A DNA stretch of 64,000 bases from an uncultured Planctomycetales bacterium (GTDB lineage: Bacteria > Omnitrophota > Gorgyraeia > Gygaellales > Profunditerraquicolaceae). Under the pieces are notes generated by a model. That model was not told the origin of the DNA, made no database searches, and worked only from the letters and a program-made list of their open reading frames with translations. How positions within the stretch are numbered: the stretch's first letter is position 1; each line of letters starts with the position of its first letter. The position numbers and the translations under genes are program-made. The stretch is taken from contig CAZAPM010000001.1 of assembly GCA_964487475.1 (NCBI GenBank), positions 122,086-186,085 of the forward strand. The letters are read 5' to 3'. Positions 2,956-63,551 of the stretch are shown here, piece after piece.

Positions 2956-3875
2956 TCAGGAAAACGGTGATCATCATGGGGTACCGGTGTAATTGTCATT
3001 GCGTGTTCTGCTGCAATGCGCATAAGCGTTCCCTGCCCGACCGGTCCACCGATGATATTCTGGTCGAGATGGCGCGCGCGCGCAGACGCGGGTGTACGTA
3101 CCTCGAACTTATCGGAGGGGAGGGGACCATACGGAAGGATATTTTGCAGCTGGTTTCACAGGCCCGCCGCATCGGCTTCGAAGAGGTGGTCATGGCGTCC
3201 AACGGGAGGATGTTCGCGTATCCGCATTTCGCCCGAGATCTGGTGGATGCCGGGGTGACACATCTGGTATTCTCCATTCACGGGCATACCGCGGCATTAC
3301 ACGATTCTCTTACCAGGTCCCCGGGTAGTTTTGGGCAGCTGATCGAGGGGATCGGTCATATCCGTCGTTTCAGGGACCGCTGCCCCATCGGGTCTAACAC
3401 GACTATCGTGAAGGGGAATTACCGCGCGCTCGAGGAGATCGGCAAGTTCATCTATTCGCTGGGTATCCGCAACGCCGAGTTCATCTTTGTCGATCCGACA
3501 CAGGGTGCAGCGTTCTCTTCCTTTGCCCGTATCGTGCCGAGACTTTCTGTTATGGCCCCGTACGCACGTAAATGCCTGGAATTCGGGAAGGCCAGGAGGA
3601 TCCCCCACTGGCATCTGCGATACGTGCCGTTATGCCTCTTTCCCGGTCACGAAGACCGAATCAGCGAGCTTGCGGAACGGAAGACGTTCATCACGGAGCA
3701 TGTAGCCGGGGATTTCGTCAATTTTGACGTGCAGTCATCCCGTGCTTCCGTTGGGCGTATCAAGCCTCCGAAGTGCCGTAAGTGTGCGAAATTCGCCAGA
3801 TGCGAGGGGCTTTGGAAGGAATATTACCGACATTACGGGGATAAAGAACTGCTGCCGGATATCACCCATGCCTAA
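2952..3875 (+). CDS. radical SAM enzyme, tandem paralog 2
   Basis: CNCHCVFC motif. LIGGEGT. MASNGRMF. SIHGHTAALHDSLTRSPGSF. CRKCAKFARCEG. ATG 2952 overlaps the stop of paralog 1 (ATGA). Collinear motif-by-motif similarity to paralogs 1 and 3. Confidence 0.85.
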   Translation: MIRKTVIIMGYRCNCHCVFCCNAHKRSLPDRSTDDILVEMARARRRGCTYLELIGGEGTIRKDILQLVSQARRIGFEEVVMASNGRMFAYPHFARDLVDAGVTHLVFSIHGHTAALHDSLTRSPGSFGQLIEGIGHIRRFRDRCPIGSNTTIVKGNYRALEEIGKFIYSLGIRNAEFIFVDPTQGAAFSSFARIVPRLSVMAPYARKCLEFGKARRIPHWHLRYVPLCLFPGHEDRISELAERKTFITEHVAGDFVNFDVQSSRASVGRIKPPKCRKCAKFARCEGLWKEYYRHYGDKELLPDITHA

Positions 3876-4800
3876 TATTTCAGTATATCACAAATGCGAT
3901 AACCGTTGTGTGATGTGCTCCAATCCCAGGGATTTCATACAAAGCCCGGCGAAGGATTTCTCCCTGGCGCGACTTTCACGGCGTTTAAAGAATTTTTCCC
4001 TGGGGAGAAATGTCTTTCTGGAGAATTTCAGGGACGCGTTCATTCTTTCCGGCGGTGAGCCTACCATGTCTCCGGATCTTTTTCCCGTTATCCGGAGGGT
4101 CGCCACGTTGTTCCCGCAGGCTCAGATCACCTGCTTGACCAATGGCAGGGCGTTTTCCCGTGAAGCGTACGCCAGGGAGTTCATGCGGAGGTTCCCGCTG
4201 GTGAATCTGGTGATCCCCGTGCACGGGCATACGGCTTCGCTGCACGACCGTATCACCAGGGTCAAGGGGAGCTTTACGCAGACCCTGCGGGGTCTGCAGG
4301 TGATCAGTGCCCTTATGCGTCCTACCCAGCTGCTTGAGCTCCGGGTGGTCCTGCACGGCCTCAATTACCGCTGGATGAAGGAAATTGCCCGGTTTCTGCG
4401 CGCGCAGGTCCCCAGTGCGGGACGGGTGGTTTTCATATTCGTCGAAATAGAGGGGGAGGCGGCTAAGAACTGGCGGAGGATCGGCGTGACGTATACGCAG
4501 GTCCGTCCTTTCTTGCGGGAAGCGGCTTCAGAATTGCTGCGGCTTCCTGATCCCCGGCTGTACCATTTTCCGCTCTGTCTGGTGCCGCGGGCGCTTTTCC
4601 CCCTTGTTTTTCGCACCCTGCCCGAAGCAGAGATCATGTTCCCCGTTCAGTGCCGCCTCTGTGCGCTTAAAAGCTGTTGCCTGGGGGTACACCGTGGGTA
4701 CGCCGGCGGTGTAGGGGTGGATGAGTTCCGCCCTTTCAGGCGGAAGATACGCTTCGTACGTACGGGCAATTGGTATCATCCGATCGGCAGGGTTTTGTGA
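3868..4800 (+). CDS. radical SAM enzyme, tandem paralog 3
   Basis: CDNRCVMC motif. LSGGEPT. CLTNGRAF. PVHGHTASLHDRITRVKGSF. C-terminal CRLCALKSCC. ATG 3868 overlaps the end of paralog 2 by 8 nt. Confidence 0.8.
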   Translation: MPNISVYHKCDNRCVMCSNPRDFIQSPAKDFSLARLSRRLKNFSLGRNVFLENFRDAFILSGGEPTMSPDLFPVIRRVATLFPQAQITCLTNGRAFSREAYAREFMRRFPLVNLVIPVHGHTASLHDRITRVKGSFTQTLRGLQVISALMRPTQLLELRVVLHGLNYRWMKEIARFLRAQVPSAGRVVFIFVEIEGEAAKNWRRIGVTYTQVRPFLREAASELLRLPDPRLYHFPLCLVPRALFPLVFRTLPEAEIMFPVQCRLCALKSCCLGVHRGYAGGVGVDEFRPFRRKIRFVRTGNWYHPIGRVL

Positions 4801-19297: not shown

Positions 19298-19407
19298 AGG
19301 GACGGTTCTGCTGCAAAAGGGGTTTCTCGCTTAAGGTCGGTCCGCTCGAGCAATCAGAGAATGGACCTCAATGCGCTCGAACCCCCTTTTGCAGCAGAAC
19401 CGTCCCT
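19298..19407 (+). repeat. inverted-repeat element, copy A: perfect 25-bp terminal inverted repeats (AGGGACGGTTCTGCTGCAAAAGGGG / CCCCTTTTGCAGCAGAACCGTCCCT) enclosing the ~52-nt conserved motif (copy 2, 19327-19380); followed by a T-tract
   Basis: Arms at 19298-19322 and 19383-19407 are exact reverse complements. The loop carries the second copy of the TCGCTTAAGG...ATGCGCTC motif. TTTTTT follows at 19412-19417. Lies between secDF and mfd. Confidence 0.8.
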
Positions 19408-54828: not shown

Positions 54829-55998
54829 ATGAAGATCGAGACCAGGCTGGCGGAGAGGCTCAAGAAGGTCAAGCCTTCTTCCACGCTGGCTATCACCAGT
54901 AAGGCGAAGAAGCTCAAGGCCGAAGGCAGGGACGTGGTGTCCTTTGCCGCGGGAGAACCCGATTTCGATACGCCGGATTTCGTCAAGCAGGCGGCGATCG
55001 AGGCGATCAACGCGGGGTTCACCAAGTATACCCCGACCACGGGGATCCCTGAGCTCAAAAAAGCGGTGTGCGATAAGTTCCGCAAGGATAACGGGCTGGA
55101 GTATGTCCCGGAGCAGGTGGTGGTCTCCTGCGGCGCGAAGCACAGCATCTTCAACGCGCTGTTCGTGCTGGCGGAGAAGGGGGATGAGGTGCTGATCCCC
55201 TCGCCGTACTGGGTAAGCTACCCGGAAATGACCAATCTCTGCGGCGCTACCCCGCGGTTCATCAAGACGGATGCCGAGAACGGCTTCAAGATGACCCTGG
55301 AGGACCTGGAGCGTAACTTAAGCGCCGGGGCGAAAGTGCTCATCCTCAACAGCCCGTCCAACCCGACGGGAAGCGTCTATTCCGCGAAGGAACTGCAGGA
55401 GATCGCGAAACTGTGCGTGGCCAAAAAGGTGTTCGTGATCTCGGATGAGATCTACGAGAAGATCATGTATGACGGCGTGACCCATACTTCGATCGCTTCC
55501 TTCGGGCCGGAGATCTACGACCTGACCATCACCGTCAACGGGCTTTCCAAAAGCCACTCCATGACCGGCTGGCGAATCGGCTATATGGCGGGTCCTAAGG
55601 ATGTGATGGAGGCGGTCTCCAAGGTGCAGGACCATACCACTTCCAATCCTGCGTCCATGGCGCAGAAGGCGGCGCTGGCGGCATTGACCTCGCCGGACGA
55701 TTTCGGGAAGAAGATGGCGCAGGAGTTCCAGAAGCGCCGGGATTGCCTGATCGGCCGGGTGCAGAAGATCCCTAAGATGAAGCTGGTGCGGCCGCAGGGA
55801 GCGTTCTACCTTTTCTGCGATATCTCGAAGACAGGGATGGGGTCGGTCGAGTTCGCGACCCGGCTGCTGGACGAGGAGTATGTGGCGGTGATCCCGGGGG
55901 ATTCCTTCGGGGCGGATGAATTCGTGCGGTTCAGTTTTGCCACCAGCATCGATCAGATCAACAAAGGTTTAGACCGTATAGAGAAATGGATCAAATAA
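54829..55998 (+). CDS. aspartate/aromatic aminotransferase (class I PLP fold)
   Basis: SFAAGEPDFDTP. NSPSNPTGSVY. SKSHSMTGWRIGY (PLP lysine). Confidence 0.9.
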   Translation: MKIETRLAERLKKVKPSSTLAITSKAKKLKAEGRDVVSFAAGEPDFDTPDFVKQAAIEAINAGFTKYTPTTGIPELKKAVCDKFRKDNGLEYVPEQVVVSCGAKHSIFNALFVLAEKGDEVLIPSPYWVSYPEMTNLCGATPRFIKTDAENGFKMTLEDLERNLSAGAKVLILNSPSNPTGSVYSAKELQEIAKLCVAKKVFVISDEIYEKIMYDGVTHTSIASFGPEIYDLTITVNGLSKSHSMTGWRIGYMAGPKDVMEAVSKVQDHTTSNPASMAQKAALAALTSPDDFGKKMAQEFQKRRDCLIGRVQKIPKMKLVRPQGAFYLFCDISKTGMGSVEFATRLLDEEYVAVIPGDSFGADEFVRFSFATSIDQINKGLDRIEKWIK

Positions 55999-57254
55999 TG
56001 GGACAGACGATCGCGGAGAAGATATTGAGCGCCCACTGCGGGAAGAAGGTGTACGCAGGGGATTTTGCCATCTGCAAGGTGGATTTCACCTTCGGACAGG
56101 ACGGCACCTCGTCGATCATCATCGACCGGGTCAAGGAATTGGGGCTCTCGAAGGCCAAGACGAAGTTCTGCATGGTCATCGACCACAGCTCTCCTTCGCC
56201 CAGCGAAGGGGTTTCCCGGGTGCACAAGAAGATGCGCACCTTCGCCTCGGATTTCGGGGTGGGGCTGTATGACATCGGCTGCGGGGTGTGCCATCAGGTG
56301 ATCCCGGAATCCGGGGAGATCAAGCCCGGAGACCTGGTCCTGGGCGCGGATTCCCATACCTGCACCTACGGCGCGCTGGGTGTGTTCTCGACGGGTGTCG
56401 GCTCGACCGACCTGGCGATCGCGCTGACCACGGGCAAGAACTGGTTCAAGGTGCCCGAGACCTACAAGATCGTGGTCAAGGGAAAGCTTCCCAAGGGCGT
56501 GTACGCGAAGGATATCATCCTGCATATCATCACCGACTTGACCGCGGACGGGGCGACCTACAAGGCGGTCGAGTTTTGCGGGCCGGTCATGGACGCGCTG
56601 GATATAGACGGCCGCATGACCATTTCCAATATGGCGGTGGAGATGGGAGCGAAGGCGGGTTTCATGCCGGTGGATGAGAAGACGGTGGCGTGGTTCAAGG
56701 CCCGGGGGCTTAAGGCTAAAGATATCCCCCTGATCAAAGCCGACCCTGACGCAAAGTACGAACGTGTGATAGAATATGACGTGACCAAACTCACTCCCCA
56801 GGTGGCCAAGCCCCATGCGGTGGACAATACCGTGCCGCTGGCGAAGGTGAAGGGGACCAAGATCGACGAGGCGTACATCGGCACCTGCACCAACGGCCGG
56901 CTGGCGGATCTTAAGCTCGCGGCGAAGGTGCTCAAGGGAAGGACGGTGCATCCTTCGGTCAAGTTGATCATCGCTCCGGCTTCGCGGGAAATATATCTCG
57001 AGGCGCTTAAGGCCGGGTATGTGGATACGTTCGTCAAGTCCGGCGCGGTGATCGTGGCGCCGGGCTGCGGGCCCTGCGTGGGCACGCACAACGGCGTTCC
57101 GGCTGACGGGGAGTCGGTCATCTCGACGGCAAACAGGAATTTCAAGGGCCGCATGGGGAATCCCAATGCGTTCATTTATCTTGGTTCGCCTGCCACGGTC
57201 GCGGCTTCCGCGTTGACGGGCAGGATCACCGATCCGGTAAAGTACTTATCATAA
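55998..57254 (+). CDS. leuC: 3-isopropylmalate/(homo)aconitate dehydratase large subunit (LeuC family, ~420-aa archaeal type)
   Basis: Aconitase-family Fe-S ligands: GADSHTCTYGALG, GTCTNGR, GCGPCVG. Start could alternatively be 55986. Confidence 0.9.
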   Translation: MGQTIAEKILSAHCGKKVYAGDFAICKVDFTFGQDGTSSIIIDRVKELGLSKAKTKFCMVIDHSSPSPSEGVSRVHKKMRTFASDFGVGLYDIGCGVCHQVIPESGEIKPGDLVLGADSHTCTYGALGVFSTGVGSTDLAIALTTGKNWFKVPETYKIVVKGKLPKGVYAKDIILHIITDLTADGATYKAVEFCGPVMDALDIDGRMTISNMAVEMGAKAGFMPVDEKTVAWFKARGLKAKDIPLIKADPDAKYERVIEYDVTKLTPQVAKPHAVDNTVPLAKVKGTKIDEAYIGTCTNGRLADLKLAAKVLKGRTVHPSVKLIIAPASREIYLEALKAGYVDTFVKSGAVIVAPGCGPCVGTHNGVPADGESVISTANRNFKGRMGNPNAFIYLGSPATVAASALTGRITDPVKYLS

Positions 57255-57270
57255 CCTTCGAGGGGTAGCT

Positions 57271-58317
57271 ATGGAAATCAGGGACCTGCTGGTGATGTGT
57301 ATCGACAAGAAGGCTTCCGATCTTCATTTGACGGAGAACGAGCCTCCGATCCTGCGCATCAACGGTAAACTGCACCGCATGCCGGGGGATAAACTTCCCG
57401 CTGCAGAGCTCAAGAAGATGATCTACAGCGTCCTGACGAATACCCAGAAGGAGATGTTCGAGCGCGACCTGGAGCTGGATTTCTCCGTGGCGCTTCCGGG
57501 GCTCGACCGTTTCCGTGTCAACGTGCATATGCAGAAGGGGTCGGTGGAATCGGCGTTTCGGCGCGTGCCGCTGGTGATCCCGAGCGTGGATGATTTGGGG
57601 CTGCCGCAGATCGTGCTGGACTTAGGGCGCAGGCCCAACGGCCTGGTGCTGGTGACCGGGCCTACCGGCGTGGGCAAGACCACCACGCTCGCCTCGATCA
57701 TCAACATGATCAACAACGAGCGCGAGTGCCTGATCATGACCATCGAGGACCCCATCGAGTTCATCTATGCCAACAAGAAGGCGATCATCAAGCAGCGCGA
57801 AGTCTATGCGGATACCCATTCTTTCGCCGATGCGCTCAAGCACTGCCTGCGCCAGGATCCCAACGTCATCGTGGTCGGAGAGATGCGCGACTTGGAGACC
57901 ATCTCCACGGCGCTGACCGCGGCGGAGACGGGTCACTTGGTGTTCGCCACGCTGCATACTCCCGATGCGCCCCAGACCATCGAGCGTATCATCGACGTGT
58001 TCCCTCCGCACCAGCAGCAGCAGGTGAAGCTTCAGCTCGCCGACTGTCTCCAGGGTGTGGTGTCCCAGCTCCTGCTCCCTAAGGTTGACGGGAACAGCCG
58101 GGTGCTGGCCACCGAGATCATGATCGCCACCCCCGGTATCCGCAACCTGATCCGCGAGCAGGAGATCGAGCAGATCCCCACCCTGATGCAGACCGGAAGC
58201 CAGTACGGGATGAAGACTATGGACCGTTCCCTGAAGGACCTTTACCAGAAGGGGATCATCAGCCTTGATTCGGCCATGTCCAAGGTCAAGAACGTCGACG
58301 AATTCAAACAGCTTTAA
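57271..58317 (+). CDS. pilT: type IV pilus retraction ATPase PilT
   Basis: GPTGVGKTT Walker A. EDPIEF. VGEMRDLET. AETGHLVFATLHT. PilT signature GIRNLIRE. Confidence 0.9.
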   Translation: MEIRDLLVMCIDKKASDLHLTENEPPILRINGKLHRMPGDKLPAAELKKMIYSVLTNTQKEMFERDLELDFSVALPGLDRFRVNVHMQKGSVESAFRRVPLVIPSVDDLGLPQIVLDLGRRPNGLVLVTGPTGVGKTTTLASIINMINNERECLIMTIEDPIEFIYANKKAIIKQREVYADTHSFADALKHCLRQDPNVIVVGEMRDLETISTALTAAETGHLVFATLHTPDAPQTIERIIDVFPPHQQQQVKLQLADCLQGVVSQLLLPKVDGNSRVLATEIMIATPGIRNLIREQEIEQIPTLMQTGSQYGMKTMDRSLKDLYQKGIISLDSAMSKVKNVDEFKQL

Positions 58318-58343
58318 ACCATACGGTATTCGAGAGGCACACG

Positions 58344-58844
58344 ATGAAAATAGAAGGCAACGCGATCAAGATCGGCGATAACATCAATACGGACTTTATC
58401 ATCTCCGGACGTTACAAGTTCTCCATCACGGATATGAAGGAGTTGGCGAAGCATATCATGGAGGACCTCGATCCGGAGTTCCCTAAGAAGATCACCCCCG
58501 GGAAATCCATCATGGTCGCGGGAAGCAATTTCGGGATGGGGTCGTCGAGAGAGCAGGCTCCGCTGGTGATCAAAGAGGCGGGGATCACCGCGGTCATGGC
58601 CAAGAGCTTTGCCCGGATATTCTTCCGCAACGGTTTCAACGTCGGGCTCGCCCTGATCGAGTGCGATACGGATAAGATCGGGGATAAGGACGAGCTTTCC
58701 ATCGACCTTGACCGCGGGGTGGTGCGCAATATCACCCGCAATATCGAGCTGGTCTTCAAGCCCCTGCCCGTGTTTATGCAGGAGCTCCTGAAAGAGGGCG
58801 GGGTCGTCAATTACTATAAGAAACACGGCGAACTAAAAGTTTAG
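58344..58844 (+). CDS. leuD: 3-isopropylmalate/(homo)aconitate dehydratase small subunit (LeuD family)
   Basis: GDNINTDFIISGRYKF, GSNFGMGSSREQAP, FARIFFRN. Confidence 0.9.
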   Translation: MKIEGNAIKIGDNINTDFIISGRYKFSITDMKELAKHIMEDLDPEFPKKITPGKSIMVAGSNFGMGSSREQAPLVIKEAGITAVMAKSFARIFFRNGFNVGLALIECDTDKIGDKDELSIDLDRGVVRNITRNIELVFKPLPVFMQELLKEGGVVNYYKKHGELKV

Positions 58845-58868
58845 GGACGCCCCTAAAGGGGACACCCC
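58843..58868 (+). repeat. degenerate copy (D) of the AGGGACGG inverted-repeat element family (AGGGACG + CCCCTAAAGGGGACAC)
   Basis: Shares the left terminus AGGGACG and the internal GGGGACAC hairpin with the copy at 63134-63206. Located at the leuD stop, in the leuD-leuB spacer. Confidence 0.5.
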
Positions 58869-58878
58869 TTATACGAAA

Positions 58879-59979
58879 ATGACGCATAAAATTACATTAA
58901 TTCCCGGTGACGGGATCGGTCCGGAAGTGGCTCTCGCGGCAAAACGCTGTATCGACGCGACGGGTGTCAAGATCGAGTGGGAGGAAGTGATCGCCGGCCA
59001 GGCGGCCCTGGAGAAGTTCGGGGAGCTGCTTCCTGCGGCGGTGCTGGATTCGGTCAAGCGCAACAAAGTCGCGCTCAAGGGGCCGATGACTACCCCCATC
59101 GGCACGGGATTCCGTTCTGTCAACGTGGCGCTGCGCCATGCGCTCGATCTGTATGCCTGCGTGCGGCCGGCCAAGTCTTACCCCGGGGTCAAGAGCCCGT
59201 ATAAGGATATCGACCTGGTCATTGTCCGCGAGAACAGCGAGGACCTTTACGCGGGGATTGAGTTCGAGATGGATAAGCCCGAGACCAGGGCCTTGATCGC
59301 AGAGATCGAAAAAGGCTCCAGGAAAAAGATACTTCCCGATTCGGGGATCTCGATCAAGCCTATCTCGGTGACCGCAACCCGCCGCATCGTCAAGTACGCC
59401 TTCGAATACGCCCTGGCTCACCGCCGGAAGAAAGTGACCGTGGTCACCAAGGCGAACATCATGAAGTTCACCGACGGGCTGTTCCTCAAGACTGCCCGCG
59501 AGGTGGCCAAGGAATACGAGGGAAGGGTACAGTTCGAGGAGGCGCTGGTCGATGCCATGGCCATGCAGCTGGTGCAAAAGCCGCACTCCTACGATATCCT
59601 CTGCCTGCCGAACCTTTACGGTGATATCATCTCGGACCTTTGCGCCGGTTTGATCGGCGGATTGGGAATCGCGCCCGGGTCCAATATCGGCGACGGCATG
59701 GCGGTATTCGAGGCGGTGCACGGTTCTGCTCCCAAATATGCCGGACAGAACAAGGTGAACCCTACCGCGATGATCCTTTCCGGGGTGCTGATGCTGCGCT
59801 ACCTTAACGAGGGCAAGGCTGCGGATGCGCTGGAAGGCGCGCTTACGGCCGTGCTGGCCGAGGGTAAGGATGTCACGTATGATCTTAAGCCTTCGCGCGA
59901 GGATCCGACCGCGGTAGGCACCAGCCAGATGGCGGATGCCATTATTAAAAAAATAGGGGACACTTCTAACCGTAAATGA
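58879..59979 (+). CDS. isopropylmalate/isocitrate dehydrogenase family enzyme (LeuB or NAD-IDH)
   Basis: IPGDGIGPEV. Conserved substrate-binding SVNVALR. GDIISDL. Cluster context with leuCD favours LeuB, but the adjacent mdh leaves IDH possible. Confidence 0.85.
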   Translation: MTHKITLIPGDGIGPEVALAAKRCIDATGVKIEWEEVIAGQAALEKFGELLPAAVLDSVKRNKVALKGPMTTPIGTGFRSVNVALRHALDLYACVRPAKSYPGVKSPYKDIDLVIVRENSEDLYAGIEFEMDKPETRALIAEIEKGSRKKILPDSGISIKPISVTATRRIVKYAFEYALAHRRKKVTVVTKANIMKFTDGLFLKTAREVAKEYEGRVQFEEALVDAMAMQLVQKPHSYDILCLPNLYGDIISDLCAGLIGGLGIAPGSNIGDGMAVFEAVHGSAPKYAGQNKVNPTAMILSGVLMLRYLNEGKAADALEGALTAVLAEGKDVTYDLKPSREDPTAVGTSQMADAIIKKIGDTSNRK

Positions 59980-59990
59980 GAACCGTCCCT
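59956..59990 (+). repeat. half copy (C) of the AGGGACGG inverted-repeat element (GGGGACACTTCT...GAGAACCGTCCCT), embedded in the leuB/mdh junction
   Basis: The 12-mer GGGGACACTTCT is identical to the copy at 63171-63182, and the right terminus AGAACCGTCCCT is shared with the other copies. It encodes the last 8 codons and TGA of the dehydrogenase, and the ATG plus first 5 codons (MRTVPK) of mdh. Confidence 0.7.
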
Positions 59991-60911
59991 AAGATTTCGA
60001 TTATCGGAGCGGGGAATGTAGGCGGGATGACCGCCATGCGCATCGCCCAGGAGGATCTGGGAGAGGTGGCGCTGATCGATATCGCCAAAGGCCTGGCAAA
60101 AGCCAAAGCCTGCGATATGGACGATTCCCGCCAGGTCCTCGGCAACGGTTTCCGGATCACCGGCAGCGAGGATATGTCCGCGCTCTCGGGATCGGAGGTA
60201 GTGGTGGTGACCGCCGGCCTGGCCCGCAGGCCGGGGATGACCAGGGAGGACCTGCTGGCTAAGAACGCGCAGATCCTCAAAGAAGTGTGCTCTGCCGTAA
60301 AGGCGCACGCTTCCCAGGCGATCCTGGTGGTGGTGACCAATCCTTTGGATATCATGACCAGGTATGCCTTGAGCGTGACCGGATTCCCCCGGGAGCGCGT
60401 GATCGGGATGGGTTTAAGCCTGGATGCGTCCCGTTTCGCCAATCTGATCGCAGGAGAATTATCCGTACCCGTGACATCGGTCGATCCGTGCGTGATCGGA
60501 AGCCACGGAGAGGGGATGATGCCCTTGCCGCGTTTTACCACCGTCAACGGCAAGCCTTTGTCTAAGCTCGTTTCTCCCGAGAAGGCCCAGGAGCTGGTCG
60601 CCCGCACGGTATCCCGCGGCGCCGAGATCGTCGGGCTTTACGGCAGCGGGAGCGCGTATTTCGCGCCGTCGGCTTCTTCCGCCTGCCTGGTGCGCGCCAT
60701 CCTCAAGGACGAGAAGCGGACCATCGGCGTCTCCTGTTTCCTCCAGGGTGAATACGGGATCAAGGATACCTGTATCGGCGTGCCCTGCGTCATCGGCCGC
60801 AAAGGTATCGAGAAAGTGGTGGCCCTGGACCTGGATGCCCAGGAGAGCGCTGCGCTGCAGTCTTCCGCCGGAAAGCTGGCCGCGCAGTGTGTGTCCCTTA
60901 CCGCAGCATAA
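59976..60911 (+). CDS. mdh: malate dehydrogenase (LDH-like MDH family)
   Basis: KISIIGAGNVGG Rossmann motif. LARRPGMTREDLL. VTNPLD. GSHG. Confidence 0.9.
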   Translation: MRTVPKISIIGAGNVGGMTAMRIAQEDLGEVALIDIAKGLAKAKACDMDDSRQVLGNGFRITGSEDMSALSGSEVVVVTAGLARRPGMTREDLLAKNAQILKEVCSAVKAHASQAILVVVTNPLDIMTRYALSVTGFPRERVIGMGLSLDASRFANLIAGELSVPVTSVDPCVIGSHGEGMMPLPRFTTVNGKPLSKLVSPEKAQELVARTVSRGAEIVGLYGSGSAYFAPSASSACLVRAILKDEKRTIGVSCFLQGEYGIKDTCIGVPCVIGRKGIEKVVALDLDAQESAALQSSAGKLAAQCVSLTAA

Positions 60912-62220: not shown

Positions 62221-62902
62221 AGCAGAACGCGCAACAGGTACAGCCAGCGTAGTACTCACCCCAGGGATCGTCGATTATTATAAGGCGCTCCAGCTTCAAA
62301 AAGAGCTCCAGGAAAAGGTAATTTCCGGCAGTCTTCCCGGCGCGCTGATCGTCTGCCGCCACGTTCCGGTGATCACGCTGGGGAGGTCAGCCAGCGACGC
62401 CAACCTTATGGCGGAGGCGGAATTGCTCCTCGAGAAGGGGATCGGCGCCTGCCGCACTGACCGGGGAGGGGATGTGACCTACCACGGCCCGGGACAGCTG
62501 GTGGCATATCCGATCTTTAACCTGGAACATCTGCATAAGGATCTGCACTGGTTCCTGCGGCAGCTGGAGGAAGTGGCGATCCGTTTTCTGGCCGGGTGCG
62601 GGGTAACGGGTGAGCGCAAGGCCGGGTTTACCGGGGTGTGGGTGGGCACGCATAAGATCGCTTCGGTCGGGATCTCGGTGCGGCAGTGGGTGACCATGCA
62701 CGGGTTAAGCATCAATATCCGCAGGGATATTCCCGATGGATTCAGCCTGATCAGGCCGTGCGGTCTGGATGTGCGCATGGCGTATGTGCAGGATTTTTTC
62801 GGAAGTTTCATGGACGTGGAAGCTTTTACCGGACAGCTGGTAAAGCAGTTCGGCAAGGTCTTTGGCCTGGAATTCCGTGAGGAGGCGGGTACGCATGATT
62901 AA
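62201..62902 (+). CDS. lipB: lipoyl(octanoyl) transferase
   Basis: RGGDVTYHGPGQLVAYPI and catalytic-region motifs of LipB. Confidence 0.9.
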   Translation: MMLYAGRAERATGTASVVLTPGIVDYYKALQLQKELQEKVISGSLPGALIVCRHVPVITLGRSASDANLMAEAELLLEKGIGACRTDRGGDVTYHGPGQLVAYPIFNLEHLHKDLHWFLRQLEEVAIRFLAGCGVTGERKAGFTGVWVGTHKIASVGISVRQWVTMHGLSINIRRDIPDGFSLIRPCGLDVRMAYVQDFFGSFMDVEAFTGQLVKQFGKVFGLEFREEAGTHD

Positions 62903-63125
62903 GGTGGTTCTTCCTGAACTGGGCGAAAAGGTGGAGAAAGCCACGGTGTCCTACTGGTTCGTGCAGGTAGGGCAGAAGGTGGAGGAGAAGGCTGATCTGG
63001 TCGAGTTGACCACGGATAAGGCGGCGTTCAACCTTCCCAGTCCCGGCGCCGGGACCTTGGCAGAGGTGTTCTTTAAAGAGGGGGATACGGTTAAGGTCGG
63101 CGACTTGCTGGCGATAATCCAGTAA
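62895..63125 (+). CDS. free-standing lipoyl-domain (lipoyl carrier) protein, ~76 aa
   Basis: MIKVVLPELGEKVEKATVSYW...VELTTDKAAFNLPSPGAGTLAEV. Lipoyl-lysine TDKA motif in a single hybrid-barrel domain. 8-nt overlap with lipB. Confidence 0.75.
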   Translation: MIKVVLPELGEKVEKATVSYWFVQVGQKVEEKADLVELTTDKAAFNLPSPGAGTLAEVFFKEGDTVKVGDLLAIIQ

Positions 63126-63133
63126 CAGCTCGT

Positions 63134-63206
63134 AGGGACGGTTCTGGTTTACGGTTAAAAGTGTCCCCCTGGGGACACTTCTCCGAACAAAAACAGAACC
63201 GTCCCT
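63134..63206 (+). repeat. inverted-repeat element, copy B: 13-bp termini AGGGACGGTTCTG / CAGAACCGTCCCT with internal hairpin GTGTCCCC-CT-GGGGACAC; then a T-tract
   Basis: Termini identical to the first 13 nt of the arms of copy A (19298-19407). Located right after the lipoyl-carrier stop. TATTTTTAT follows. Confidence 0.75.
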
Positions 63207-63217
63207 ATTTTTATCTC

Positions 63218-63266
63218 TTGACAACCCATGGCATGGCATGTATATTCTAGATATGCGTAGATATGC
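63218..63266 (+). promoter_or_regulatory. sigma70-type promoter (TTGACA-17-TATATT) with two tandem TAGATATGC repeats just downstream of the -10
   Basis: -35 at 63218-63223. -10 at 63241-63246. Direct repeats at 63248-63256 and 63258-63266 with a 10-bp period. The spacer also carries CATGGCATGGCATG. RBS AGAGGAG at 63281-63287. Confidence 0.55.
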
Positions 63267-63290
63267 CTAAAACAGCGCTAAGAGGAGTAC

Positions 63291-63551
63291 ATGGGTAAGA
63301 ATAGAGAGATCATGACGGCAAAGGAAGTCGCAGAGTACCTTAGCGTACACCCTCTCACGGTGCATAAATACGCGCGGGAGGGGAAGATCCCCGCATTCAA
63401 GATCGGGACGGACTGGAGATTCCACCGTAAATATATAGAGAACTGGATCAAGGATAAGTTAGACGACCGGCCGGTAGTAAAGGCAAAAGATAAAATCAAA
63501 GAGAAGTCGAAGAACGAGCAGCCTGCGGAAAATAACCCGCAGGCTTCTTGA
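63291..63551 (+). CDS. excisionase-family helix-turn-helix DNA-binding protein
   Basis: MTAKEVAEYLSVHPLTVHKYAREGKIPAFKIGTDWRFHRKYIENWI matches the excisionase/MerR-like HTH_17 pattern (...IP..K.G..WRF). Lys/Glu-rich tail. Confidence 0.7.
   Translation: MGKNREIMTAKEVAEYLSVHPLTVHKYAREGKIPAFKIGTDWRFHRKYIENWIKDKLDDRPVVKAKDKIKEKSKNEQPAENNPQAS

Follow-up and report, generated by a model that had tools for sequence, protein, structure and literature searches.

A REP-type repeat unit very probably provides both the stop codon of an isocitrate dehydrogenase-family gene and the start codon of malate dehydrogenase in an Omnitrophota bacterium

The stretch of DNA considered here, hereafter the window, comprises 64,000 nucleotides (nt) from an uncultured Planctomycetales bacterium (Omnitrophota, Profunditerraquicolaceae, in the GTDB lineage; assembly GCA_964487475.1, contig CAZAPM010000001.1, positions 122,086 to 186,085). 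It contains, in this order, genes for an aconitase-family large subunit, a pilT-like ATPase, the corresponding small subunit, an isocitrate/isopropylmalate dehydrogenase-family enzyme (icd; protein, ICD), malate dehydrogenase (mdh; protein, MDH), lpdA, lipB and a lipoyl carrier. The subject of this analysis is the junction between icd and mdh, which is occupied by a 35-nt sequence, GGGGACACTTCTAACCGTAAATGAGAACCGTCCCT; icd ends and mdh begins within this 35-mer, and the two open reading frames (ORFs) have four bases, ATGA, in common. The upstream gene had originally been labelled leuB/icd, and only the second part of this label stands: the best NCBIfam matches of the protein are isocitrate dehydrogenase models, all under their equivalog cutoffs, and leuB models score far lower. 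NCBIfam alignments of ICD end at residues 358-360. MDH scores 374 bits against PRK06223 (cutoff, 283), in an alignment that begins at residue 5.

The 35-mer has a layout of 12 + 11 + 12 nt, with the 12-mer GGGGACACTTCT, the spacer AACCGTAAATG and the inverted 12-mer AGAACCGTCCCT. At up to one mismatch, GGGGACACTTCT has three matches in the window (0.29 expected), and AGAACCGTCCCT has five exact matches (0.31 expected). The entire 35-mer is identical at 32 of 35 positions to the reverse complement of 63134-63168 (0.00 expected by chance), which belongs to a full copy of the repeat downstream, and its three differences from this copy are the A at 59976 and a change of CC to TG at the same spot. 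A profile built from 42 metagenomic copies of the repeat (the Type A copies described below), with the copies in the window left out, matches 59954-59990 with an E-value of 2.8e-5, and the same profile matches this interval on the opposite strand with an E-value of 1.1e-6. The match covers model positions 39-75 of 75, so the junction is, by an independent measure, half an element. The original prediction that this is repeat sequence is thus confirmed both by the match within the window and by the profile. Its description as a fragment is correct as to repeat origin and has to be amended as to completeness, since the 35-mer is one complete repetitive extragenic palindromic (REP) unit, that is, half of a doublet of the REPIN type (an inverted pair of REP units forming a hairpin). 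Likewise, the 12-mer GGGGACACTTCT is present as predicted and is more than internal, being the inner copy of the 12-base motif that also forms the termini.

Both gene ends can be read through the unit. The icd ORF ends in ...ADAIIKKIGDTSNRK, i.e. ...IGDTSNRK followed by TGA, giving the C-terminal peptide IGDTSNR(K). The mdh ORF begins MRTVPKISIIGAG, or MRTVPKISIIGAGNVGG over a longer stretch, with a predicted N-terminal peptide (M)RTVPKISIIGAGNVGGMTAMR; its codons within the unit, ATG-AGA-ACC-GTC-CCT (MRTVP), are in frame with the conserved K-I-S-I-I-G-A-G. The stop codon, the start codon and their ATGA overlap were all predicted originally and are borne out by the ORF reading, whereas the numbers of repeat-encoded residues were each set one too high: seven rather than eight residues of ICD (GDTSNRK) come from the repeat, I359 being a conserved residue encoded by ATA outside it, and five rather than six residues of MDH (MRTVP), K6 being a conserved residue encoded by AAG outside it. 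In the mdh frame, a TAA at 59973-59975, directly 5' of the ATG, bars any start further upstream, and no ATG, GTG or TTG occurs in the window sequence between the 35-mer and the GxGxxG motif of mdh. This leaves the ATG of the 35-mer as the only canonical start before the GxGxxG (Rossmann) motif. There is no Shine-Dalgarno (SD) sequence at a usable distance from this ATG; the sole G-rich stretch ends 16 nt before it.

A search of a genome collection with MDH yielded 80 loci, mostly from Candidatus Omnitrophota (best MDH identity, 61%), and icd lies directly upstream of mdh in 58 of them, which were taken as the set of orthologous junctions. In the great majority of these, matches to ICD stop at residue 359 (the I of KKI) and matches to MDH start at residue 6 (K), so that both edges of the 35-mer are the exact limits of homology to the two proteins. 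A start codon stands directly before the conserved K (MDH opening M-K(I/V)...) in 48 of the 58 junctions, the ICD tails past I359 are 0-6 residues long, and the median spacer length is 20 nt, with overlapping stop and start codons in seven junctions. The GDTSNRK tail and the MRTVP start were found in none of the 58. Similarly, the 119 closest ICD proteins in a large protein collection end in ...ADAII(K/A/E)K(I/L) followed by 0-8 further residues, in most cases K, KK or KR, and none has GDTSNRK. This comparison of orthologous termini had been set beforehand as the test that could refute the original prediction; coincidence finds no support in it, and the lack of both peptides from the orthologues supports their origin from the repeat.

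In the nearest relatives (83-85% ICD identity), the genes follow one another as they do in the window. Their loci, covering up to 21 kb, contain no copy of the 12-mer, even allowing two mismatches, and they thus lack the repeat at all three sites at which it occurs in the window, which would be indirect support for mobility of the repeat. Their junctions read ...AAGAGATAG TTAT ATGAAA (TAG, 4 nt and ATG), ...AAGAAATAA followed by 18 nt and ATGAAA (stop codon TAA), TAA followed by 46 nt and ATGAAA, and ...AAATAATGAAA (a TAATG overlap); several relatives likewise have no SD before mdh, and their MDH is 306 amino acids long (311 in the window). When the 35-mer is excised in silico, the two coding sequences join as ...ADAIIKKI/KISIIGAG in one frame with neither a stop nor a start codon. 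The repeat must therefore have replaced the old junction, and a model of simple insertion was rejected on this ground. Two other loci (L019 and L021) were considered as ICD-MDH fusions, a reading that was rejected since both have normal stop codons.

The features of the junction and of the other copies of the repeat are listed in Table 1.

Table 1. Positions in the window of the repeat copies and of the genes and codons at the icd-mdh junction
Feature	Position	Strand	Remarks
Solo REP unit, half of a REPIN-type doublet	59956-59990	+	Sequence GGGGACACTTCTAACCGTAAATGAGAACCGTCCCT
Isocitrate/isopropylmalate dehydrogenase-family gene (icd)	58879-59979	+	366 amino acids; last seven residues, GDTSNRK, repeat-encoded
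TGA stop codon of icd	59977-59979	+	Within the REP unit
ATG start codon of mdh	59976-59978	+	Within the REP unit; overlaps the icd stop codon as ATGA
Malate dehydrogenase gene (mdh)	59976-60911	+	311 amino acids; Met1 and RTVP repeat-encoded
Full REPIN-type doublet	63134-63206		73 nt; after the stop codon of the lipoyl-carrier gene; profile match over full length, E-value 2.5e-12
Palindrome with the same 12-base termini and a different interior	19298-19407		110 nt; between secDF-like and mfd-like genes
Possible collapsed relic of the repeat family (tentative)	58843-58871	+	AGGGACGCCCCT aaa GGGGACACCCCT; similarity weak

In generalized form the 12-base motif is (A/G)GGGAC(G/A)(G/C)TT(C/T)T, and its eight copies in the window all fall within three loci: the junction, the 73-nt doublet and the 110-nt palindrome. 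The doublet contains four copies of the motif, in the order forward, reverse, forward, reverse, which make up two inverted units of 35/36 nt; it folds at -44.7 kcal/mol (z -6.8), and the consensus structure retains both the outer and the inner stem while leaving the 11-nt spacers unpaired. The 110-nt palindrome folds at -73.6 kcal/mol (z -10.5), and both full copies sit just 3' of stop codons. Directly 3' of the doublet lie a T-run and then, at 63218-63246, a near-consensus promoter-like site (TTGACA, 17 nt, TATATT; 11 of 12 bases), ahead of a small helix-turn-helix/excisionase-like ORF (63291-63551). The full doublets exceed the loop limit of a simple terminator scan and so are not called by it. 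A fourth site, upstream of icd, could, to judge from its sequence, be what is left of a collapsed copy of the repeat: AGGGACGCCCCT and GGGGACACCCCT match the outer and inner repeat motifs over their first 7-8 bases, the site overlaps the TAG stop codon of the leuD-like gene (T/AGGGACGCCCCT aaa GGGGACACCCCT), and the spacer there is 34 nt long in the window compared with 2-5 nt in the nearest relatives. In the same neighbourhood, the pilT-like ATPase gene (57271-58317) is inserted between the large and small subunit genes of the aconitase/isopropylmalate-isomerase-family enzyme (55986-58844), an arrangement kept in the nearest relatives (L206-L209).

Outside the window, a scan of metagenomes for AGGGACGGTTCT followed by 27-87 nt and AGAACCGTCCCT found the palindrome in at least 120 contigs (L085-L204). 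Among the matches listed, the contigs span a guanine-plus-cytosine (GC) content of 27-71%; their sources are sediment, groundwater, termite gut, rumen, human gut and digesters. Two layouts are seen among these listed matches: Type A copies are 73-77 nt long, like the doublet in the window, with the consensus AGGGACGGTTCTCAAcTCAAaGcAgAAcTGTCCCCtaaAaGGGACAGTTTTgctTTGggTTGAGAACCGTCCCT, and Type B copies are shorter, the 12-mer lying within a longer local palindrome. The ends of the element are flanked as Y-AGGGAC...GTCCCT-R, where the hyphens mark its limits. A regular-expression search for solo units returned mostly false solos with a slightly degenerate partner arm, the only apparently true ones being the unit in the window, one at L196:180-214 and one in an icd-mdh spacer of another Omnitrophota genome (L032, see below). 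The repeat is thus a short, imperfect, multi-copy palindrome in mostly intergenic positions (the three loci of the window and at least 120 contigs), as expected of REP sequences, and occurs both as an inverted pair forming a hairpin (the doublet) and as singlets (the junction and L032), as expected of REPINs.

Other classes of element agree less well with these data. The inverted-repeat ends could suggest a MITE (miniature inverted-repeat transposable element), a reading that was rejected since a direct flank duplication of 2 or 3 nt, the expected target-site duplication, was found in 0 of the 42 Type A copies. Integron attC sites, CRISPR repeats and dif-like sites were considered and dropped on account of the misfit of their core motifs and layout and because a link with a transposase explains the data. 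Rfam 15 has no family for the repeat, at the gathering threshold or at permissive E-values; only two tRNAs reach the threshold in the window, and the matches of the doublet are sub-threshold microRNA hairpins. Plasmids yielded nothing that matches the consensus doublet, phages nothing beyond a 25-nt chance match, and a full-text literature search for 10-mers of the repeat returned only chance primer matches.

The link with transposases emerged from the metagenomic loci. Four of the listed loci selected by the repeat carry a gene for a Y1 transposase (Y1_Tnp in Pfam, 42-59 bits; cutoff, 23), the best NCBIfam match of these proteins being the REP-associated tyrosine transposase (RAYT), and the motif brackets or precedes the Y1 gene in three of the four: the gene lies between two near-identical elements in L150, the 12-mer is 56 nt upstream of it and a hairpin pair overlaps its stop codon in L133, and the 12-mer is directly upstream in L127. 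In an unbiased test, six loci (L212-L217) were picked by transposase homology alone, with repeats disregarded. The motif was found near the Y1 gene in all six, as the exact core GGGACGGTTCT in four and as a variant in two, at a distance of no more than about 250 nt (about 130 nt in all but L217). In two of the four Omnitrophota loci (L212-L215), exact GGGACGGTTCT brackets the gene in inverted orientation, and the other two have the variant cores GGGGACGCTCCT and GGGGACGCTTCG; in both Bacteroidota loci (Muribaculaceae GCA_017619935.1 and Sodaliphilus GCA_045598405.1), the exact 11-mer occurs no more than about 250 nt upstream, and in L217 it is also present downstream, inverted. An exact 11-mer is expected by chance within a few hundred bases at about 3e-4 per locus, so its presence in four of six loci is far beyond chance. 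These results identify the repeat, by its sequence and its neighbours, as a REP/REPIN-type element with the core GGGACGGTTCT that is linked to a Y1 (IS200-like, RAYT-type) transposase, and it may be inferred that such a transposase mobilizes the family. Y1 genes themselves end within their own flanking repeat in L133 (10660-10735), L214 (4660-4700) and L217 (1270-1300), as ...KSGDGSIF* in L133 and with a TAG inside ATAGAACCGTCCCC in L214, so that repeat-encoded termini recur within this family. Two side observations concern Omnitrophota. In GCA_030692435.1 (L214:3600-6400), two Y1 genes directly follow the lipoyl-carrier gene of the same icd-mdh-lpdA-lipB operon and occupy the position that the doublet has in the window (compared with window 62862-63300). 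In L047 (7200-8100), a Y1 gene is flanked by a different repeat, AAATCTGACCCCAATTA / GGGGTCAGATTT, which means that Omnitrophota hold more than one transposase-repeat pairing.

The consensus of the repeat helps to explain how one of its units could become a gene boundary. In the arms of Type A copies, the three bases before AGAACCGTCCCT are xTG in 63 of 84 cases and TTG in 58 of 84; this means that the repeat consensus (TTGAGAACCGTCCCT) includes a TGA in that register, with a start-capable TTG overlapping it, and the consensus end TTGAGAACCGTCCCT thus has a start codon overlapping a stop codon and an open frame behind. ATG occurs at this position in none of the 84 arms, and it is one base from the consensus TTG, which marks the A at 59976 as derived. 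ORFs of at least 100 amino acids terminate inside the element in 24 of 131 elements among the matches listed, often as ...RDGS*. Co-opted start codons from this repeat look rare: six ORFs in other loci open mechanically as L-RTVP in the repeat end, and they were rejected as further examples because these openings are mechanical extensions and real SD and ATG starts lie a few codons downstream. A related arrangement is found in L032 (Omnitrophota, JBAZKC010000002.1), where a solo unit of the same family, GGGGACGTTTCT-TGAGCCAATCG-GAGACCTGTCCCC, lies in the icd-mdh spacer, with the icd stop codon 9 nt before it and an SD and ATG 16 nt after it; this may represent the state of the lineage in the window before flank loss and co-option. 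Five other loci (L027, L035, L048, L050 and L077) have unrelated hairpin-forming or tandem-repeat icd-mdh spacers of 94-229 nt (-36 to -60 kcal/mol), near locus position 3800-4000 (1500-1700 in L077), and in Omnitrophota palindromic DNA seems to have landed repeatedly at the icd-mdh junction.

Taken together, these observations make it very probable that one 35-nt unit of REP/REPIN type replaced the ancestral icd-mdh junction and now encodes both gene ends. The original prediction had offered domestication into two coding termini as one of two options, and it is supported by the exact coincidence of the 35-mer edges with the limits of homology. The alternative that survives best is that only half of this happened, the repeat providing the ICD tail and stop codon while MDH starts non-canonically further downstream, for instance at the ATT at 59994, with MRTVP left untranslated. 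The lack of an SD before the ATG speaks for it, as do the six mechanical L-RTVP ORFs, though in those loci an SD and ATG follow a few codons downstream, whereas here the stretch from the repeat to the GxGxxG motif holds neither an SD nor any ATG, GTG or TTG. Furthermore, the ATGA type of overlap is found in 7 of the 58 orthologous junctions and several relatives also do without an SD. ATT start codons are very rare, and we regard this alternative as improbable.

An assembly artefact, the other option of the original prediction, would mean that a longer real spacer, such as a full palindrome, was collapsed, or that two contigs were mis-joined at the repeat. Palindromic repeats do break assemblies, and many contigs with a transposase of this family measure no more than about 1 kb. 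Contigs from other assemblies nevertheless carry the same sequence: an identical MDH protein is encoded in JGI 3300076298 and in two Logan assemblies (ERR14964774 and SRR12447082), and an identical ICD protein in JGI 3300076594. Both JGI contigs (L001 and L004) cross the junction with identical sequence; the Logan contigs (L002 and L003) begin within the unit, are identical from there on and cover the right side of the junction only. Although they stem from different runs, L002:1 and L003:1 correspond to the same base, window 59962 (ACTTCTAACC...), a point in favour of an artefact that suggests a branch in the assembly graph, arising from another copy with that 30-mer or from a strain variant. 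Against an artefact, besides the two JGI assemblies, both reading frames are kept exactly, and at the left join, ATA/GGGGAC, unique coding sequence meets the unit's inner end, an arrangement that would presumably not result from a collapsed palindrome. The artefact option is therefore rejected as very improbable. Decay of the junction, with an insertion that damaged it and set one or both genes on course to pseudogenization, is just as improbable: in its favour are the unusual ICD tail and MDH N-terminus and the missing SD of mdh, but both ORFs are full length with intact motifs, at 74-85% (ICD) and 55-61% (MDH) identity to relatives, and the identical sequence recurs in several samples. A chance resemblance is scarcely conceivable, for although the 12-mers are short and the family has only two other loci in the window, the 32/35 match, the profile E-values of about 1e-6 to 3e-5, the edges at the homology limits of both genes and the absence of GDTSNRK and MRTVP from all orthologues compared stand against it.

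The assignment to a REP/REPIN-type family rests on resemblances to systems with a RAYT (TnpA-REP, Y1), which likewise consist of short, imperfect palindromes, multi-copy and mostly intergenic (PMC2817692, PMC3116915, PMC3333891). The inverted doublets and singlets, the absence of target-site duplication, the lack of copies found on plasmids or phages and a Y1 gene flanked by inverted repeat copies in a REPtron-like layout (known here from other genomes) are further points in common. Several points weigh against the interpretation as a whole. Neither GTAG nor GTGG, the conserved 5' GT[AG]G foot of canonical REPs, was found at the element ends, a 12-base motif being used four times per doublet instead, and the transposases score only 55-60 bits against the NCBI RAYT model (NF047646 REP_Tyr_transpos), which has a cutoff of 80. 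No Y1 transposase gene occurs in the 64-kb window, so the association between repeat and transposase is shown in other genomes only. The relatives available for comparison reach 85% ICD identity and include no intermediate state of this lineage. The mdh translation start, the coupling of icd and mdh, and the protein termini are predictions from sequence, and there is the small chance, already weighed, that the ATT at 59994 is a rare non-canonical start of mdh.

There are also differences of distribution and position: REP families are usually lineage-specific and normally extragenic, whereas here the same core occurs in Omnitrophota and Bacteroidota and the unit in the window is coding on both sides. 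With respect to the missing foot, the repeats of transposase subclasses 2.6 and 3 also lack GT[AG]G, and the Bacteroidetes subclass 2.6 (NH[LIV]H ... YIH[QN]NP) is flanked by 'atypical secondary structures' (Quentin 2018, PMC6006769). The Bacteroidota transposase found here resembles this subclass by motif only (NHVH, YIHQNP, also the motifs of the L150 protein).

How the unit came to its position can be proposed in outline. To judge from the relatives, it would have replaced one or two basic codons, a stop codon, a spacer of 0-46 nt and the ATG of mdh. A unit or doublet may have landed in the short spacer, small in-frame deletions then removing the old stop codon, spacer and ATG; in a variant of this route, the first and third 12-mers of a doublet, being direct repeats, would have allowed slippage that reduced the doublet to a single unit, and such slippage would leave exactly the structure observed. 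Alternatively, a single replacement event could have had the same outcome. In either case the icd frame of the unit would give GDTSNRK and the consensus TGA, and the frame one base earlier ATG and RTVP.

Given the lack of an SD at a usable distance, translation of mdh is inferred to proceed by termination-reinitiation at the ATGA, and this overlap probably couples mdh to icd. The solo unit folds weakly (-9.9 kcal/mol, z -1.7), with the AUG in the 11-nt loop; ribosomes translating icd would melt this hairpin and reinitiate on mdh, as may be supposed from general knowledge of overlapping gene pairs. The fold and the absence of a U-run are not those of an intrinsic terminator, and a terminator scan called none at the junction, where no T-run follows the unit. 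As the unit has no partner arm, the doublet hairpin of about -45 kcal/mol does not form, and icd and mdh would stay one transcription and translation unit. ICD gains seven residues at its C-terminus and MDH four behind its initiator methionine; none of them falls within the conserved cores, which both enzymes keep, and these tails are probably harmless.

Gene ends encoded by repeats are already known from Rickettsia palindromic elements (RPEs), mycobacterial interspersed repetitive units (MIRUs) and the Neisseria element REP2. The MIRU is the closest functional precedent, given that the unit in the window likewise overlaps the stop and start codons of its neighbours. In an account of 1997, Supply is said to have described MIRU overlaps involving the stop and start codons of the adjacent genes, and MIRUs reportedly occur as tandem direct repeats. 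The window differs in having a solo palindrome rather than a tandem direct repeat and in drawing both codons, as ATGA, from a single 35-nt unit. As far as the MIRU passage of one review goes, these units lie between operon genes, their ends overlapping adjacent genes of the polycistron, and are MITE-like sequences of 40-100 bp whose inverted repeats, both terminal and internal, are imperfect and which show tetranucleotide direct repeats at the filled site (PMC3184786); that passage mentions no link to a Y1 transposase, which the family described here has. The unit in the window therefore works like a MIRU while standing outside the MIRU family.

Several repeat families have documented cases of fusion to the ends of genes or of insertion within them (PMC3184786, PMC10969869). 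RPEs, in the summary available of the original description, are insertions of about 150 bp, in frame inside metabolic genes, that add an internal peptide (Ogata 2000, via PMC10969869); like the unit in the window they are palindromic selfish DNA translated within normal housekeeping proteins, whereas here 35 nt replaces a gene boundary and gives two termini. Neisseria REP2 brings a start codon to the downstream gene, together with a promoter and ribosome-binding site (Delihas 2011, PMC3184786). The supply of a start codon is shared with the junction, but REP2 does not end the upstream gene and is unrelated in sequence and structure. What is new here is the host phylum, the REP-type, Y1-linked family and the origin of both signals, as a single ATGA, in one 35-nt unit.

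A single stretch of repeat thus supplies the stop codon, the start codon and both protein ends of two central-metabolism genes, and in compact genomes 'extragenic' REP units can become part of coding sequence. The signals required for this, TGA and a TTG that is one base from ATG, are present beforehand in the consensus of the repeat, and annotators should not treat such repeat-derived termini as errors. The core and transposase common to Omnitrophota and Bacteroidota are a more unusual lead than the junction itself. One extension, which we consider unlikely though less so than any of the alternatives to replacement of the junction, is that an invariant core GGGACGGTTCT with its Y1 transposase across at least two phyla and 27-71% GC reflects either a tightly constrained recognition code or spread between phyla, and that TTGAGAACCGTCCCT units are ready-made translational-coupling junctions repeatedly recruited between operon genes, the window being one instance. 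A protein-DNA recognition code of that kind would be constrained far beyond what REP families normally show. With so unusually conserved a core, this REP family and transposase clade of Omnitrophota and gut Bacteroidota may offer a convenient system for the recognition of repeats by Y1 transposases.

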